Shown here: piece by piece, positions 9,849 to 57,540 of the stretch
Layout: each line of letters opens with the position of its first letter
How positions within the stretch are numbered: position 1 is the first letter of the stretch
Source: Spizellomyces punctatus DAOM BR117
Lineage: Eukaryota
Direction: 5' to 3' (one strand)
NCBI GenBank assembly: GCA_000182565.2
Contig: KQ257455.1
Length of the DNA: 64,000 nucleotides
Made by a program: the position numbers and the translations under genes
The notes under the pieces: model-generated
Databases searched by the model: none
What the model was told of the DNA's origin: nothing
The model's input: only the letters and a program-made list of their open reading frames with translations

Positions 9849-10056
9849 GATGGGAAAAGCAAGTGATGAGATTTGGCGGATGAGACCAGTAAATGTCTTG
9901 TCCTTTTGATCACAGTTCAACCTACGTTCGGATCAGAACGGGATTTCTGGGGACGCCGCGTGATCCATAAAATGGGTTGATTTGAAAAGCCGGTTAGATC
10001 CACAAATTCCCACGTGAAAACATGTCGCGTGACCAAATAGCCGAATGAAAGATTTA

Positions 10057-10779
10057 GTGTGTAGGTGATTGAAAATGGCACTAGGACCCAGCATTATCCG
10101 GATTAATCCGGTTAATCATATCACCTAATCAGAACCCCCATCTATCACTCAGATTGGTGTGGCATGTAGCGGTGTGGCATGTATTGTAATGTTTTTTGTT
10201 TATTTTTAAACTGTGGTGAGGCGCATGCTGAAGGTCTATAAAAGGGGACCTGCTCCCTCTTCCGTCTTGTTTCTTTATCCCTCGACTCTCAAAGCATCTG
10301 CCAACGCTCAACTCTCAAGTCCATCATGAGAATCCTGCTCTGGTGCCGACGACCTCGTCCGCCTGACAAATACAACATAACCCCTTGCAAATGCTGCTAC
10401 TACTATATTGCTACGATCGCAGGTATGCATTATCTTTGTATTTTCCCACGCGTATTATCCAGTCTCATTATTCTGATTTTACTAGTATCTGAACATCCTC
10501 TGACTAAAGAATTTCGGAATCAAGGGCTTAGTAGGATTTCTCTCGTGATGTGGGCTTAGTTACCCGGTTAGAACCAACCGTAATGCCTTGCATGTGTAAT
10601 TGGGCCTAGTTGTAGTTGGTTGCACGTACCCCAGTTCAACCCAGGCTGGAACCTGTAGCGAGTTAGGATAGGGGTGGGTTATGAAGGGTTGGACAGGCTG
10701 GCTAATTGTAAATTAGAACCGGCTGTAGTGGGTTGGAGGGAGAATTTGTCTCTAGTGACATTTTCTACCACCTGCACAC
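10057..10779 (+). mobile_element. Non-autonomous TIR element (copy A), TA-flanked; relative of the Fanzor ghost-like element at 43660-44409
   Basis: Left GTGTGTAGGTGATTGAAAATGGCACTAG vs reverse complement of right GTGTGCAGGTGGTAGAAAATGTCACTAG (24/28); TA at 10055-56 and 10780-81; colinear similarity to the reverse complement of 43660-44409. Confidence 0.9.
10237..10243 (+). promoter_or_regulatory. TATA box inside element copy A
   Basis: GGTCTATAAAAGGGG, conserved in copy B, followed by a pyrimidine-rich tract. Confidence 0.55.
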
Positions 10780-10851
10780 TAAGATGTATGGCTTTTGCAA
10801 AAAAGATATCTACAAGGCAAATGGGCTCATGCAAACGTATCTACAAGATGC

Positions 10852-14546: not shown

Positions 14547-15686
14547 CTATACAATATCTTCCCGGGTATTGCTTGACTGTGTAGTTAGATATGTCACCAC
14601 ATCTTTATGGCCATTGATTCTAGCTAATCGCATAGCCTCTCCGCCATTGGCCCAAACATCCGCACCAGCATTTTCGCATAAATATATAACGTTTGACAGT
14701 CTACCTTCCTTTGCGGCAACCGCTAGTGCAAGGCCAGCCTGATATCGAACATCTGCACCGGCTTCAACTAGGGTTGCGCACACTGCCACCTTGTCCGCCG
14801 CCGCTGCGACGACCAATGCTGATTCGTGTGTTTCCCGAAAAATGGTATTTGGACATAGTCCACCTTTTTTAAGAAGGAATTCCACAACATGGGGATGCCC
14901 AGACTGGATGCCACTATACAAGACGACGTTATCTTGTGCGCGTAAATCGAGTCCATGCTTCATTAAAAGGGACAGAGTAGGGACATTTCCGAGGGTTGCG
15001 GCGCGAGCTCCAGCCGCACACATCACCCTGTTCCGTCCATGTGTAATATTGCTTGCAAGGTAGGAAATAACTTCAGAATTTCCGTACTCGACCGCCCGCA
15101 CCAAGATGAACGACGTCACAGTGGCCCTCTCCTCTTCGACCAAGTATCTGATAACCGGAATGTGTGATAATCCAGCCCTAAAGCCTTGTTCCAATACAAT
15201 CGGGTATGTGAGCCGCACTTGGCGGGGTGAAACACCTTGTTGCCCGCCATGTGCAAAAGTATCCTCACAACCATCACCCACATCCTCATCATCCCATTTC
15301 CAACCGCACACACGCTGACTTAATGCTAGTAATTCAGCCACAAGGGCCACTTTCCCAGCCCAAGCAGCCACAACAACCGCATCCCTCAAAGCAGGTAGCG
15401 ACGAGTCAATTTCTCTGCATCTGTTCAGTAATATGCGAATCACTTCAGGAGTACAGATATGCCAATGTGAGCATTCTGCTAGAAAGGAACCGCAAGCTGG
15501 TTCCTGATAATGCCGAGCAAAGAGAAATGACGCTCGAGCGGCTGACGAAAACGCAAGCGCATTGTAACAGGAGCGGGAAACGGTGACTAGTGCAGAGTTG
15601 GCAGAAAAGAGGAGGATGAGTTCTAGGAGGGGAGTGGGGAGGTCGTGTAGGTTGGGTCTATGGACTGAGCTGGTTAATGTATGCAT
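14547..15686 (-). CDS. F-box-like N-terminus plus ankyrin-repeat protein (intronless)
   Basis: LHDLPTPLLELILLF at N-terminus; repeats such as AVEYGNSEVISYL, GHPHVVEFLL, NGHKDVVTYL. Confidence 0.8.
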   Translation of the reverse strand: MHTLTSSVHRPNLHDLPTPLLELILLFSANSALVTVSRSCYNALAFSSAARASFLFARHYQEPACGSFLAECSHWHICTPEVIRILLNRCREIDSSLPALRDAVVVAAWAGKVALVAELLALSQRVCGWKWDDEDVGDGCEDTFAHGGQQGVSPRQVRLTYPIVLEQGFRAGLSHIPVIRYLVEEERATVTSFILVRAVEYGNSEVISYLASNITHGRNRVMCAAGARAATLGNVPTLSLLMKHGLDLRAQDNVVLYSGIQSGHPHVVEFLLKKGGLCPNTIFRETHESALVVAAAADKVAVCATLVEAGADVRYQAGLALAVAAKEGRLSNVIYLCENAGADVWANGGEAMRLARINGHKDVVTYLTTQSSNTREDIV

Positions 15687-22572: not shown

Positions 22573-23935
22573 ATGTCCGCTGCTCCAGAAAAATACCGCA
22601 AAGAGCTTGCCGAGACTGCCAAAGCTATTGTTGCCCCTGGCAAGGGTATCCTGGCCGCAGATGAATCAACAGGAACTATTGGGAAGCGTTTTCAGAACAT
22701 TCAGGTCGAGAATGTAGAAGAGAACCGGAGAGCGTATCGAGAATTGCTCTTCACCTCTGGCAAAGGTATATCCACGTTGAATGAAGCTGNNNNNNNNNNN
22801 NNNNNNNNNNNNNNNNNNNNNNNNNNNNNNNNNNNNNNNNNNNNNNNNNNNNNNNNNNNNNNNNNNNNNNNNNNNNNNNNNNNNNNNNNNNNNNNNNNNN
22901 NNNNNNNNNNNNNNNNNNNNNNNNNNNNNNNNNNNNNNNNNNNNNNNNNNNNNNNNNNNNNNNNNNNNNNNNNNNNNNNNNNNNNNNNNNNNNNNNNNNN
23001 NNNNNNNNNNNNNNNNNNNNNNNNNNNNNNNNNNNNNNNNNNNNNNNNNNNNNNNNNNNNNNNNNNNNNNNNNNNNNNNNNNNNNNNNNNNNNNNNNNNN
23101 NNNNNNNNNNNNNNNNNNNNNNNNNNNNNNNNNNNNNNNNNNNNNNNNNNNNNNNNNNNNNNNNNNNNNNNNNNNNNNNNNNNNNNNNNNNNNNNNNNNN
23201 NNNNNNNNNNNNNNNNNNNNNNNNNNNNNNNNNNNNNNNNNNNNNNNNNNNNNNNNNNNNNNNNNNNNNNNNNNNNNNNNNNNNNNNNNNNNNNNCAAAC
23301 GGTCTAGTTCCAATTGTAGAGCCCGAGATTCTGATGGACGGTGATCATGATCTGGAGCGGTCGGCTCAGGCCACCACTGAAGTCCTTAGTGCCGTGTTCA
23401 AAGCTTTGCACGACCATCTTATCTTCCTGGAAGGCTCGCTGCTCAAGCCTAATATGGTCCTGCCCGGGTTTGACTCGCCTAAAAAGTACACTCCTCAGGA
23501 TATTGCCAAGGCTACCGTGACTACATTACGCCGTACTGTTCCACCCGCAGTCCCGGGCATTACCTTCCTGTCAGGTGGTCAATCTGAGGAGGAAGCTACT
23601 ATCAACCTCAACGAAATCAACCGTGTTCCGGAAGTCAAGCCGTGGGCGTTAACGTTTTCGTATGGACGAGCGCTGCAAGCATCCGTCCTAAAGACCTGGA
23701 AGGGGAAAAAGGAGAATGTGGAAGCCGCTCAGAAGGTGTTTATTGAACGAGCAAAAGCATGTTCTCTGGCAGCTTTGGGCAAGTACCAAGGAGGTGATAA
23801 AAGCTCGGGTGCTACAGAGAGCTTGTATGTGAAGGTAGGCCACGCTCAAGACTGACAATTTTTCAAGGCACAAAATGTAGAGCTTGAAAGCTAACAATCA
23901 TCCCGTGTCTTCCCTGATAGGATTACAAGTACTGA
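22573..23935 (+). CDS. Class I (Schiff-base) fructose-bisphosphate aldolase; middle lies in an N gap
   Basis: [61 protein letters not shown]-terminal Tyr (DYKY*). Confidence 0.95.
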
Positions 23936-24895: not shown

Positions 24896-25147
24896 GAGGG
24901 ACTCTTGCCAACTGGGGCTGGCATGNNNNNNNNNNNNNNNNNNNNNNNNNNNNNNNNNNNNNNNNNNNNNNNNNNNNNNNNNNNNNNNNNNNNNNNNNNN
25001 NNNNNNNNNNNNNNNNNNNNNNNNNNNNNNNNNNNNNNNNNNNNNNNNNNNNNNNNNNNNNNNNNNNNNNNNNNNNNNNNNNNNNNNNNNNNNNNNNNNN
25101 NNNNNNNNNNNNNNNNNNNNNNTGAAGAGCAGATCTCGCACTTTCCA

Positions 25148-34856: not shown

Positions 34857-35637
34857 TCTGAATGACAATGGTGATTTGTCGACCAGCGCTTGCAGGGCGA
34901 TATCGCCTTACGTGCCTGCTACGCTGTGCCACACCCAAGTTGCTATGGCATCATGGAACTGTGGGATACCGTAAAGGCTTGATAGGCTCGATGGAGCATA
35001 AACAATCGGAAATGTCATCAATGCATCAAGAGTTTTGGATCAATCTGATCAGATGTGAGAAGGAGTGGGTGTTGGTGCAGATGCAGATGCAGGCTTGTAT
35101 CCAGCGGGCACGCATACATGAAAGTAGATGGGATCTGGAGGGTAGCCAAACGGCGGGAAGAAACAAAAGCTTGTCCGTACGCTTACTTGTACGTGCTTAG
35201 TAAGATACATGAAGACATAATAAGATACTATGAAGAATACTCAAGCACTCTTCTTGCTGTGATCCAACGTTGATAACAAAAAGTCTCCAAAATGCAGGAT
35301 AAACAAACAGATCGTTTTGATTACGGCAGCGTGACTCAGCAGCTGGGACTTTCCCGCGCAATTAACCCCTCCTGCCCTCGCTTGCGCCGGTTTCCCCCCA
35401 AGGATGCAGGTTGACGACGACCCATCCCTTCCGCTCGCTGGATTCCCCCGTGCGAGTAACGTGCCTGGCATCGCCCAACTATAAAGTGGCATCTGGGTTT
35501 TTCGTCCGGCCTTGTTGCCAGTCGCACTCGTCCCGTGTTCACCTAGCTGGCTGTCACCTAGGCACTGAAAGGAGGGAGAGGTATGTAGAATACACGTCAA
35601 CGTCAAACGTCAAATTTCGCAAAGTCTGAACACAATT

Positions 35638-42369: not shown

Positions 42370-43440
42370 ATGTCCGTGCCGGGGCTCCAGGCCCTGCACG
42401 CAGGCTATGCATTGCTCCAGGTCAGTGTGAAAGAAGCGCTTATACTCTGCAAAACACTATTTGACTTTCATCCCCCGGATAGTTACTTTGTATATATTTT
42501 GCGGTGCTGGCCTATAGACGATCACGTAATGGTGCCCCGGGTGCCATAGTCTTTGCTGTGTTTGCTGGCCTCAAGTGCTTTGATGATCTCTTGGTAGTCA
42601 TTGGACCTTGGCTTGACGCATCTCCAACCCATCACGCCGTTCTTCGAGGATTGTCGGCCTTTAGCTATTTTGCTGGATGCCTTACGCAACCTTCCCTCTT
42701 CCTTGTTGCCTACGAACTATGCCATACTTTACACGGAGGTCCGAAACGACGCTTGCTAAGCCGCGATCAAGTGGGTCGAATCGGGGCCTTAGCACTTACC
42801 TGCAGTTTTGCCACGTATGAGATCTTGGATTATGCTCTCTATTCCAAAGTGGCCGATTCGATTGTGCTCCGGAAGCCCTGGGGTGTTCCCGTGTACGAGG
42901 TAGAACGTGGAATCTTCAGTGCGAGCGTGTATACCCGGTTCGCGACATGTCTTATGCTGTTAGCGGCTGGTGGGTGCCTTTGGGCGCGGACACATTATCC
43001 ATGGCTGAGTTTATTACAGTTGGTTGTTTTGTTGGGTCAAGGTAAGGAATGCATAATACAACGCGCAATGTATCAACTGTTGTGACTCATGATTTACATC
43101 TCGTCATCTAGTAGCGACCTTTCATGCAGCATCGTACCAAATCTTTCTCGATTCTGGCTGGGATGTTGTATTCTCTCTCTCTTTAGCAATGGCACACTTT
43201 CACGTCATGGGTAATCAAGAGGAAGAGGAAAAGTTTGAGCCGTTGCTGTTTGGCGACGACTCTGCGCGTTGGTATGGAGCCGTGGAGGTTTGGGCAGACG
43301 GACATCCAGCTTCTTCATCACCGACACGGTGGAAAGGAAAGGAAGGAATCGTCATTGTATCGCAACCTGATGGAGGGCAGACGGGCAACCCACCCTATAC
43401 GGCAGTTGAGCGAGGCGACAGCGATCGTACGATAGCCTGA
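42370..43440 (+). CDS. Hypothetical multi-pass membrane protein
   Basis: Three exons with GT-AG introns and several hydrophobic helices; no family recognised. Confidence 0.6.
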
Positions 43441-43642
43441 GGAAAATCATCATAGCTGGGCATATTTATACGGGGTTTATTGTATATTTTATCTGGACAC
43501 ATTATGGGATCTCGTAATTTGAAATACAGACATATAAAACTGTATCTCAAGTCATAACGGATATTGCTATTATTTTATGATGGGCGCATTGGTTGAGGTG
43601 CATTTTGGAAAACGCAAAACGACAGTAGTCGTCTTTCTTATT

Positions 43643-43731
43643 TGGTTTGCCGAACGTTAGTGTAGAGGTGACAGAAAATGGCACTAGCTACTACACCAGG
43701 GAATAAACCGGCGACAACCGGTTCGGAAAAG
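43643..43731 (-). ncRNA. Putative Fanzor omegaRNA: ~74-nt scaffold (43658-43731) plus flank-derived guide (~43643-43657)
   Basis: CTTTTCCGAACCGGTTGTCGCCGGTTTATTCCCTGGTGTAGTAGCTAGTGCCATTTTCTGTCACCTCTACACTA; stems AACCGG/CCGGTT and TGGTGTAG/CTACACTA; resembles the SpuFz1 scaffold as recalled. Confidence 0.75.
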
Positions 43732-44409
43732 CTAACTAAGCTACTACTAAGCAATTATACACGCAATACGTAACGGTTGGTTCTAACCGGATAATTGCCC
43801 ACCACCACACGCGGTCCCTACTAGGCCTTGATCCAGAACTCTTGATGGCATTGAAGCCAGAGTCTTCGCAACATTGGGGAGACTCGCAAGCTGGAGGATG
43901 TTCAGTGACAAGGCTTGGAGACTACAAAAAACTGCATGTCAGCGAGGTGAAATGACAGAATGAAATGATGCCATTGGTACATACCAACCAAGCTCAACTA
44001 ATGTGGCAGCATAATAGTAGGTTTTGTTATCGGATCTGATTGGTTGCCACTGGTTCTGATCACGGTTGCTGTCGGGCGGTCAAGGTCCTCGGCACCACCA
44101 CATCTGTATTCTCATGATTCGACCGACAGTCGTGATGAGAAGAGTTGCACAGATGCTTCGAGAGTCGAGGATGGGTGAAGAGGAAAGAGGGAAGAGACAG
44201 AAGGCCCCCCTTTTATAGACCTTCCGCATGTGCCTCACCGCAGTTTAAAAAAAAAGTTACATTAGCATGCCACACCGCAGTTTGGAGAACATTAGCATCC
44301 ATGCCTCACCGCTTTGAGCGATAGAGGGGGGTTCTGATTATGCGATATGATTAACCGGATTAATCCAGATAATAATGGGTCCTAGTGCCATTTTCAATCA
44401 CCTCCACAC
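43660..44409 (-). mobile_element. Non-autonomous TIR element (copy B), Fanzor 'ghost'-like: 5' CATA, TA flanks, 3' omegaRNA-like end, no Fanzor ORF
   Basis: TIRs GTGTGGAGGTGATTGAAAATGGCACTAG / GTGTAGAGGTGACAGAAAATGGCACTAG (25/28); TA at 43658-59 and 44410-11; CATA on the minus strand at 44410-44413. Confidence 0.88.
44211..44217 (-). promoter_or_regulatory. TATA box inside element copy B
   Basis: GGTCTATAAAAGGGG on the minus strand, same position as in copy A. Confidence 0.55.
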
Positions 44410-44524
44410 TATGATGTGGCTTAGCGGTGCGAATGACCAACGAGAGCGGCTCTCGCGCCCGTTGAGAGATCTGCGAGATCGTGCCTTCATTAGACCAAAC
44501 TTCAAAGGTGAAACCAACCTTCAG

Positions 44525-46679
44525 ATGCTGGAACAAACGCACTTTGACGCCATTGTTCTGGGTACTGGTCTATCAGAGTCCATTATTGCCAGGTAGGCAC
44601 CCGCTAGCACGACCACCCGCGCTGTCTGCGAACACTAGTTGCTGACATGTTCAAAGTTCGCTAGCACGAGCTGGTAAAACAGTTTTGCACCTCGACCGCA
44701 ACATATTCTACGGGGACCATTTTGCATGTTTTGATTTAAAGACCTTTTTGAGGGTTTTGTGTGTAGAGCGAGGTATGACAGTAAGTAGTTTACCGTTTCG
44801 GTGAGATACTGATGTGTGCCTTGTAAAGATGAGACGAACCCTTTTAATGCGGCGTACGGTGATGTGGAGGTCGTGCTGCGAAGTGGGTCAAAAGAGGAGG
44901 TCGAGAGACTTGCGGGTATTCAAAAGAGAGAAAACACTGCAAATGAGGAACCAGCGACGTCTGAGGTAGCTCAGGACTTGCCCACTGACGACGGAGCAGT
45001 GGAAACCAATGGCCCAATACAAACGCCAACACCCAACTCAATCTCTACTATCCTCGATTTTCTCAAGCAAAATGCCAACCTCGTCCCCGTCTTCAAATCC
45101 CTCTTGGCTGATCCCGATCCCTCCGTCACTATCGCATCACTCGACCCATCCGACCCTCTCCTCCCAAAGTACACCATCCTTGCCCACCTTCTAACCCAAT
45201 CCCGGCAATTTAACATTGATCTAGCACCCAAACTCCTATACAACCGGGGGCCTTTGGTGGAATTGTTGATATCGTCGGGGGTGGGCAAGTATTTGGAATT
45301 TAAGGCTTTGGAGAGCGTGTATCTTTCGTGGCAGGGGAAATGTGAGCTGGTATGCTCGTGTGCTCATCTTTGATTGTATGAGAGGCTTATGCTGTGATGT
45401 ATAGGTACCTGGCTCAAAAGAGGACGTGTTTTCGAATCAGAGCGTCAGTTTGGTGGACAAACGGCGGCTAATGAAGTTTCTCACTTTTGCGGTGGAGTAT
45501 GAAGCACAGCCGGAGATTTATCAAGGTGAGTAAGCGTGCCACGAGTACTCGGATTACATTGTACTCATATACATGATCTTTAGACTTTGCAACGCGGCCG
45601 TTCATTGATTTCCTACGTGATCAGAAGCTGAGTCCTCGCTTGATATCGTTCATCCTGCATGCAATTGCATTTGCAGTGGACCGGGCTGACTCAGAGACCA
45701 GTATGTACTCTGCATTGATCACGAGTGAAATTTGAATCTAAAGTTTCAAAAAAAACAGTCACTACGGTCCAAGGACTTGCCCTCACGCAACGTCACTTGC
45801 AATCCCTAGGAAGATGGGGTAAGACAGCATTTTTGGTTGCGCTGTATGGAGCCGGGAGTGAGCTCTCGCAGGCTTTCTGTAGGTCCGTTTTTGTGGCATC
45901 TGTGGGAAGTGCGATACTGGGATCTTACTTTTCTTCAGATTTTGCGCAGTGTATGGAGGGATCTATATCTTGAATTTCCCAATATCAACAATTTCCATAT
46001 CTGAGGATCCCGACCGGCGGTTCAAGGTGGTTGGGAGTGATGGGGGAGAGTACACCTCGTCCTGGCTGGTGACTTCATCAAATTATGTTGGCAACTTACC
46101 GCAGGGGATGAACGTCGACATGAAGAGGTATCCGTGCACTTGGGCTAATACTGTAGTGCAGGAATTAATGTGCCATGTTGTTCTAGTACTCGTGTCTTGC
46201 GTGCCATGGCCATCTTGGATAAACCAATTCATGAGGATACCAATCTGACTGTAACCGTCTTTCCACCTGACTCAAATAGCAACACACAAGGCATCATCGC
46301 AATCCAGCAGAGTTGGGACGTGAGCGCATGTCCAAAAGAATATTGTAAGTCTTGTCTGAATTTTACATAATGCGCTTCATATCTAATGTCCGTGCTAGAC
46401 ATTCTCCATCTCCATTCCCCGAGCCCACAAGCCACCCACCAAGATTTCAAGGCCATTCTCTCATCTCTATCCTTGGACCCCCTAATAACAGTCTTTTATT
46501 CTCAAACAGTCCAAGTTCCCTCTACGATGTGGGTAGCGGATCATCTGGCGTTTGTTGGATCGAATGTGGTGGATGTGGATTTCGAGAGTGCTGTGCTGGA
46601 TGCTAAGGCAGTCTTTGAAAGAATCGTGCCTGACGAGGAAATTTTTGGGGGTGTCGTTGCAGAGGAGGACGGAGAGTAA
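44525..46679 (+). CDS. MRS6: Rab escort protein (Rab geranylgeranyltransferase component A)
   Basis: FDAIVLGTGLSESII, VLHLDRNIFYG, SRQFNIDLAPKLLY, VPGSKEDVF, LYGAGSELSQAFCR, CAVYGGIYILN; long insertion typical of REP rather than GDI. Confidence 0.88.
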
Positions 46680-55690: not shown

Positions 55691-57540
55691 GTGCCCGTCG
55701 GCGGTGCGGAGATTGCACGNNNNNNNNNNNNNNNNNNNNNNNNNNNNNNNNNNNNNNNNNNNNNNNNNNNNNNNNNNNNNNNNNNNNNNNNNNNNNNNNN
55801 NNNNNNNNNNNNNNNNNNNNNNNNNNNNNNNNNNNNNNNNNNNNNNNNNNNNNNNNNNNNNNNNNNNNNNNNNNNNNNNNNNNNNNNNNNNNNNNNNNNN
55901 NNNNNNNNNNNNNNNNNNNNNNNNNNNNNNNNNNNNNNNNNNNNNNNNNNNNNNNNNNNNNNNNNNNNNNNNNNNNNNNNNNNNNNNNNNNNNNNNNNNN
56001 NNNNNNNNNNNNNNNNNNNNNNNNNNNNNNNNNNNNNNNNNNNNNNNNNNNNNNNNNNNNNNNNNNNNNNNNNNNNNNNNNNNNNNNNNNNNNNNNNNNN
56101 NNNNNNNNNNNNNNNNNNNNNNNNNNNNNNNNNNNNNNNNNNNNNNNNNNNNNNNNNNNNNNNNNNNNNNNNNNNNNNNNNNNNNNNNNNNNNNNNNNNN
56201 NNNNNNNNNNNNNNNNNNNNNNNNNNNNNNNNNNNGGCATTCCGAAACACGGTATTGTAGTTTGACTCTGGGGATAGCTTGCGGGGAGAGCGTTCTGCTA
56301 GGCCAGAAACGCTGAATTGCTCTCCAAATCTGAGGGGAACTGGCAATATCGGCACTGCCGTGGCAGGACCACACTGCTACCGCATTGCCGATGTTATCAC
56401 GCCCCCTATGCGGAGACGCGGCACTGATGATTCGAGTCTTATGGACGTTGAACCATCGGAAATTGCGGGTAGGCGCAGGTCCTCCATGTGCCGTTGCTCG
56501 TCGGCGGAAATCGGCCTTTGTCATGCTTGGCCGTGATCAGCCGCCCTCCCTGCTCGCTATCCATCGAGTCCGCCATATATATGACTTAAACCATCGTGAT
56601 CTCCCAATAAAAGCCCGTGCTTGATCAAGGCATCGTGCTGGAGTCAACTCATGGTTCCTACTTGGAACTCTCAGGTATGCTGTTGGCAAATGCCGTAAGA
56701 TATAGGCGTAGCGCTTCGACGTGAAGGGTCTGGAAAGGGAAGTCGCCACCGCGCAAGGGGTGCTGAACGGCTGGCAGTTGAATGTTGACGTCCGAGGACG
56801 ATCTCTTTGCTCGCCATTGAAGGCACGCATAGTAAAAGACATGGCACACGCCTTAGCCGGCCTCTATGCTTAATCTTTGCGAGCTCGTTCTGAACTGAGA
56901 GATCCTGCTCGGACGCGAAAACATCCTTGCCTGTTGGAGCACCTTTGGCTGGCTGGATTTTGGAATCTGATGAATAGCGTTGTCCAAAAAGTGGATCGGT
57001 AGCCCAGTGTGCGATGTAATCTTATGTGCTCTGTCTTTTCGTAAAATGCTATCTGCTGTCAGCAACCCATCGCTGTCTAACTTCCGGGCAATGGCGTTTT
57101 TTTGGCCGCCGTTAATGACATGAGCGGGTCAAGTTCCACTGCCGATATTAAAGGCATGGACGTTCTGACATCTGGCAAGAAGGTGACTTTAAGCCCCTCA
57201 TTTCTTAATCCTGACTGCAGACAGCCGGATAGTAACTCAATACGCAAGCTCTTGTCAGTTTTCATGAGGATTGCATGGAGGTAAACATTGCCTTTAAATA
57301 CATATCCGGGATCCTTTGTGGATTCCTTGTAGTGTTTGTCGTAGGCAATAGTAGGAATTCGGCCATTCCCCTTCTAATCTAGTTTCCGAGCATCGCACGG
57401 CCCTTTTGGGGGGTCTTCCGTCCATTTGCCTGCTCCCTTTGAGCGTTTGACTTGTTGATATCGCTGCGCTTATTCCAGGACGCGCGTGACGGGGAAACGA
57501 CGGTCGCTTTTCGTTTAGGCATCTTTCAAACTTTTTGGAC

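Follow-up and report, generated by a model that had tools for sequence, protein, structure and literature searches.

The window analysed here, a stretch of 64,000 nt, contains at positions 43658-44411 a mobile, gene-free element of 754 bp that sits between ordinary genes. A repeat search delimited the element by two inverted-repeat arms of 30 nt each, at 43658-43687 and 44382-44411, which are complementary at 27 of 30 positions (90%) and enclose 694 nt. In the element's own orientation, which is that of the minus strand, the arm at 44382-44411 is the 5' (left-end) repeat, and the arm at 43658-43687 is the 3' (right-end) repeat. When the 30-nt arm was searched for in the window with up to three mismatches, it was found at two places only, namely the element's own ends, and 100 shuffles produced no match at all. 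An inverted repeat arisen by chance was ruled out, as the element is multi-copy. Both arms terminate in TA (43658-43659 and 44410-44411), and the plus strand reads TG at 44412-44413, that is, CA before the 5' repeat on the minus strand. The flanking CA and the terminal TA of the repeat form the motif CATA (44410..44413, minus strand). The interval 43643-44413 then consists of a predicted guide of 15 nt, the element itself, and this CA.

No long ORF was found inside the element. ORFs of 30 aa or more that overlap positions 43300-44800 number 25; the longest one located wholly within the element has 59 aa, and the seven internal ORFs matched no Pfam family at E-values up to 1. A preliminary description of this DNA had proposed a 750-bp element with 28-bp TIRs and TA on both sides, CATA directly 5' of its minus-strand start, and no long ORF. 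The first of these statements describes the same object counted differently (754 bp, with the TA included in the 30-nt repeats), and the other two agree with the sequence and with the ORF and Pfam searches. The non-coding interior, from the end of the scaffold described below to the 5' repeat (43733..44381, minus strand), contains three sequence features. A TATAAAA motif at 44211..44217 (minus strand) faces the omegaRNA end of the element. Upstream of it, in the element's orientation, a 16-nt motif is directly repeated three times over 44231..44317, with spacings of 37 and 34 nt. Finally, a subterminal palindrome, detected in the repeat search, adjoins the 5' repeat at 44347..44376. The direct repeats and the palindrome could be protein-binding sites.

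On the side of the 5' repeat, a gene of the GDI family (PF00996) starts about 115 bp past the repeat, with a likely start codon near 44527. No Fanzor gene was detected in the window, which has 41 ORFs of 180 aa or more. A Pfam scan of 29 of them gave no family of the TnpB type, and the remaining 12 overlap masked N runs. Given the absence of a TnpB-like ORF from the scanned set, any nuclease acting with the element must come from elsewhere.

The 3' end of the element carries a candidate omegaRNA scaffold of 75 nt (43658..43732, minus strand), which includes the 3' repeat. Its limits and parts were derived from the predicted fold and from published nucleotides, discussed below: a 5' tail (scaffold positions 1-8), a first stem (9-28), a linker of 6 nt predicted to be unpaired (29-34) and a second stem (35-75), the latter with a predicted 3-nt bulge at positions 46-48. 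The predicted fold of the segment 43732..43658 has an energy of -21.3 kcal/mol (z = -3.18), and only 1 of 200 shuffled sequences folds as well. If the 15-nt flank is folded together with the scaffold, the signal is weaker (z = -1.94, equalled by 6 of 200 shuffles), an effect of spurious pairing between the flank and the 5' tail. The guide, predicted from its position only, would be this unique flank located directly 3' of the element (43643..43657, minus strand). Without mismatches, this 15-mer has a single occurrence in the window. As for a target of the guide elsewhere in the window, a single match with three mismatches was obtained, which is no more than chance provides: 54 of 100 shuffles yielded two or more matches.

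This layout can be set beside that of published elements of Spizellomyces. According to Saito et al. (2023, PMC10432273), SpuFz1 has CATA as its TAM, and its omegaRNA is made of a 75-nt scaffold and a 14-15-nt guide, is transcribed across the 3' repeat, and is present in the fungus as an RNA of 88-90 nt. The scaffold comprises two stems and a 6-nt linker, A29-C34. The CATA at 44410..44413 equals the TAM given there. In S. punctatus DAOM BR117, the same work lists 134 loci of a type named 'ghost Spu-1', which lack an Fz gene; their repeats measure 30 nt, the 5' repeat is preceded by CA, and the conserved interior is about 550 nt long (PMC10432273). The ghost repeats differ at seven positions from those flanking Fanzor genes; ghost stem 2 carries a 3-nt bulge, and the canonical stem 2 has an 8-nt hairpin loop. 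In the editing assays of that paper, 75-nt ghost omegaRNAs from four loci supported DNA editing with SpuFz1 about as well as extended canonical ones, and the supply of guides in trans by ghost loci is a suggestion of its authors. A later survey of 126 unique ghost scaffolds of 74-76 nt assayed representatives of them and includes divergent, less active clusters (PMC13434818, 2026). The preliminary description had cited a CATA TAM, an omegaRNA of about 75 nt lying over the 3' repeat, ORF-less ghost loci and an RNA of 88-90 nt, all as published in PMC10432273, and the structured 3' end of about 74 nt that it had noticed corresponds to the 75 nt folded here.

The element at 43658-44411 shares with the ghost Spu-1 class its 30-nt repeats, the CA upstream, the lack of a Fanzor ORF, its multi-copy status and a Spizellomyces host. 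It also shares, as far as the fold is predicted here, a scaffold of 75 nt that covers the 3' repeat, a linker at 29-34 and a 3-nt bulge in stem 2, a likeness judged indirectly, from the published layout and from 18 named nucleotides. It differs by the length of its interior, which is 694 nt compared to about 550 nt in the published class; skips of 59-131 nt seen in other copies of the family explain only part of this difference. Relative to full-length SPu-1/SpuFz1 loci, the terminal repeats, the putative TA duplication, the logic of the CATA TAM and the omegaRNA at the 3' end are the same. The full-length loci, however, measure about 2.1 kb and encode a nuclease of 633-638 aa, whereas the element here is 754 bp long and protein-less. 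SPu-1 was itself described as a 2.1-kb element with putative TA TSDs (Bao and Jurka 2013, PMC3627910).

Since the letters of the omegaRNA appear in no searchable text, the scaffold was compared with the 18 nucleotides that are named in section 10 of PMC10432273. The locus matches 15 of these 18: eight of nine in the 5' block, at offset +1, and seven of nine in the 3' block, at offset 0. The three misses are G22, C40 and G70, and the last two fall at the edge of the region that the same source terms dispensable. None of 20,000 shuffled sequences reached 15 of 18. With offsets allowed, 10 of the 124,970 75-mers in the window did so, four of them being the scaffold itself read in adjacent registers and the other six coming from two unrelated places. 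For a site specified beforehand, such a match is supportive of the identity of the candidate scaffold and is not a proof of it. The opening string of the omegaRNA, as given in the preliminary description, agrees by eye with eight of the nucleotides named at positions 5-20.

Searches of other collections gave chance-level matches or none. An Rfam search returned two matches only, with E = 6.9 and 8.4, far under the gathering scores. In a metagenome scan, a two-block scaffold pattern was found at 29 loci; blastn at E up to 1e-3 showed no resemblance of any of them to the element, which makes them chance matches. A scan of viral contigs with a 21-nt piece of the repeat gave no match.

A second, diverged ghost copy of 727 bp was found in the window at 10055..10781, on the plus strand and hence in the orientation opposite to that of the element at 43658-44411. 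The two copies align by blastn at 74% identity over 351 nt, together with both repeats, so that only part of the interior is alignable. The portions kept in the second copy are its first 170 nt or so, the TATAAAA motif (10237-10243) and parts of the repeated 16-nt motif. In the alignment of the two copies the TATAAAA motif is invariant, and the palindrome at 44347-44376 is nearly so (alignment columns 55-100). The 5' repeat of the second copy is preceded by TT and not by CA. Its 3' region has diverged, and the succession of stem 1, linker and stem 2 was not obtained when it was folded (z = -1.40). The second copy looks either decayed or representative of a divergent subgroup.

Contigs assembled from public sequencing runs were placed on the stretch that holds the element, 263 from run X1 and 364 from run X4, nearly all of them over the element. 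In X1, the flanks of the element are single-copy and letter-identical, at a depth of 2.7-2.9. Over the element itself the summed depth ranges from 45 to 632, the two repeats being covered alike (632 and 566). This pattern is as expected for the DNA of a multi-copy family. Within 43705-43989, contigs derived from other copies lack 59-131 nt, and the copy at 43658-44411 is longer than most members of the family. The bin 43928-43971, poorly covered in X1 and uncovered in X4, lies in the stretches that have no counterpart in most family members. No contig representing an empty allele, with 43657 joined to 44412, was found among the contigs.

Run X4 is labelled 'DNA?'. One of its contigs, which begins at 44455, skips a 64-nt GT..AG stretch of the neighbouring GDI-family gene (intron 44591-44654), and X4 therefore contains cDNA. 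Besides this spliced contig, a cDNA-like aspect of X4 was noted in the lack of cover over the intergenic positions 43532-43619 and in a very uneven cover of the element. Gaps in cover occur in X15 and X13 over 44148-44411, and in X4 over 43532-43619 and 43928-43971; the absence of contig cover proves nothing. A transcript start near 44116-44119 was considered, since contigs from X15 and X13 stop matching there. It was rejected, because these contigs continue with unlike letters, as a result of divergence between copies.

Family variants inside the scaffold concern a predicted pair of stem 1. The substitutions 43710 G>A and 43719 C>T, which correspond in the RNA to C23>U and G14>A, affect the two partners of one pair. 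A single contig of X15 carries the two together; in X1 and X4, C23>U is the commoner. If the predicted stem is correct, these variants fit a path from G-C through G-U to A-U, which would amount to one compensatory event and is not a statistical test of covariation. RNA-type contigs cover the scaffold of the family, the RNA labels of runs X13 and X15 being guesses. One of these, an X13 contig of 88 nt, spans exactly 43658-43732 with one difference, and carries in addition 13 letters foreign to the flank of the element. A scaffold followed by the guide of another copy would look like this, it being understood that the end of a contig is not the end of an RNA. No contig joining the scaffold to the element's own flank was shown in an RNA run.

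We conclude that the locus is very probably a non-autonomous, protein-less member of the SPu-1/Fanzor1 family, belonging to the 'ghost Spu-1' class, and propose, in line with the preliminary description, that its transcript may guide Fanzor1 in trans. The anatomy of the element, the features that place it in the family, its multi-copy status and the RNA-type contigs over the family's scaffold are direct observations; from them we infer transcription of this particular copy, as well as binding, cleavage and homing. The element would be transcribed toward its 3' end, and the transcript would extend 14-15 nt into the flank (43657..43643). The 3' piece of this RNA would be bound by Fanzor1 protein made from full-length copies located elsewhere in the genome. 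Given that the element is bounded by TA and preceded by CA, the emptied site should consist of the TAM followed by the target of the element's own guide: should the TA be a target-site duplication, the minus strand of the empty site would read CATA and then that target. The occupied site would be immune, as the repeat, and not the target of the guide, follows CATA. The RNP could then cleave an allele from which the element is missing, and the element would be regained through repair templated by the occupied copy, a homing of the TnpB type that would serve a protein-less copy.

Bacterial IS200/IS605 elements that encode TnpB and an omegaRNA, as well as their protein-less derivatives, are organized in a comparable way. 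A guide RNA at their right end reads into the flank, the TAM lies beside the left end, the empty site is the natural target, and subterminal hairpins are present. The element described here differs from these by its eukaryotic host, its terminal inverted repeats, its TA ends and the lack of a known transposase. For Spu-1, no transposase is reported in the discussion section of PMC10432273.

The main alternative is that the element is an inert, MITE-like deletion derivative of SPu-1, whose ends have been kept for some transposase, and whose omegaRNA-like end guides nothing in vivo. TA-ended repeats are expected of any cut-and-paste element that targets TA, in keeping with the 'putative TA TSDs' of PMC3627910. 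An RNA specific to the element's locus was not seen among the contigs, and members of the family do decay, as illustrated by the second copy, with its decayed 3' end and its lack of CA before the 5' repeat. However, the 45 nt upstream of the 3' repeat, that is, stem 1 and the linker, have been kept, with a compensatory change of one pair within the family, and so have the named contact nucleotides. Moreover, RNA-type contigs are found over the family's scaffold, and published ghost scaffolds are active with SpuFz1 in the assays reported in PMC10432273 and PMC13434818. An inert relic seems improbable on this evidence. That the GDI-family gene has recruited the element as its promoter or 5' regulatory module is very hard to sustain. 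The element abuts the 5' end of that gene, for which the spliced X4 contig begins at 44455, but the conserved TATA motif faces away from it, the many copies of the family sit at unrelated sites, and nothing ties the expression of the gene to the element.

The interpretation as a ghost Spu-1 element acting in trans does not by itself define a new class. Protein-less ghost Spu-1 elements were described in 2023 (PMC10432273) and their scaffolds surveyed functionally in 2026 (PMC13434818); in these publications, ghost scaffolds have been catalogued and tested as genome-editing guides since 2023. The present copy is a clean worked example of the class, in which the CA, the TA end and the flank together indicate how the guide of an omegaRNA would match its own empty site.

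A promoter role is proposed for the TATAAAA motif, which is conserved, with parts of the triple repeat, between two otherwise diverged copies. Lying some 190 nt from the 5' end of the element and downstream of the triple repeat, the TATAAAA motif could drive a precursor of about 0.5 kb ending in the omegaRNA. The conserved motif thus offers a testable idea for the transcription of protein-less copies. By extension, ghost elements may be self-transcribed 'guide-only' genes and not passive relics, maintained by homing through a Fanzor supplied from elsewhere; this we put forward as a speculative possibility. The ratio of X4 to X1 depth was calculated in bins along the element. From the scaffold up to 44147, it lies between 110 and 276 in 9 of 11 bins and is 62 and 70 in the other two, the bin 43928-43971 being without X4 cover. 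From the TATA motif (44217..44211) outwards it is 0.2-7. Such ratios, which are per-contig means summed over copies, are to be taken as a hint only. The drop at the TATA motif fits an internal promoter and constitutes a weak hint in its favor, contig depth being a poor measure of transcription.

Some minor observations concern other parts of the window. At 35018-35043, a 27-nt match (92.6%) to the element interior at 43828-43854 was found on the opposite strand; it is either a fragment or a chance match. The ORF at 14547-15686 encodes an ankyrin protein which, over its entire length, shares 96% identity with a protein named from Spizellomyces sp. 'palustris'. The protein of the window itself is the other member of a two-member cluster with the latter, and it is present in NCBI, UniRef and EukProt. 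The DNA therefore comes from a publicly annotated Spizellomyces genome that is near to 'palustris' but distinct from it, probably S. punctatus. The N runs lie at 22790-23295 (506 bases), 24926-25122 (197 bases) and 55720-56235 (516 bases), and the first of these interrupts an apparent class I aldolase gene.
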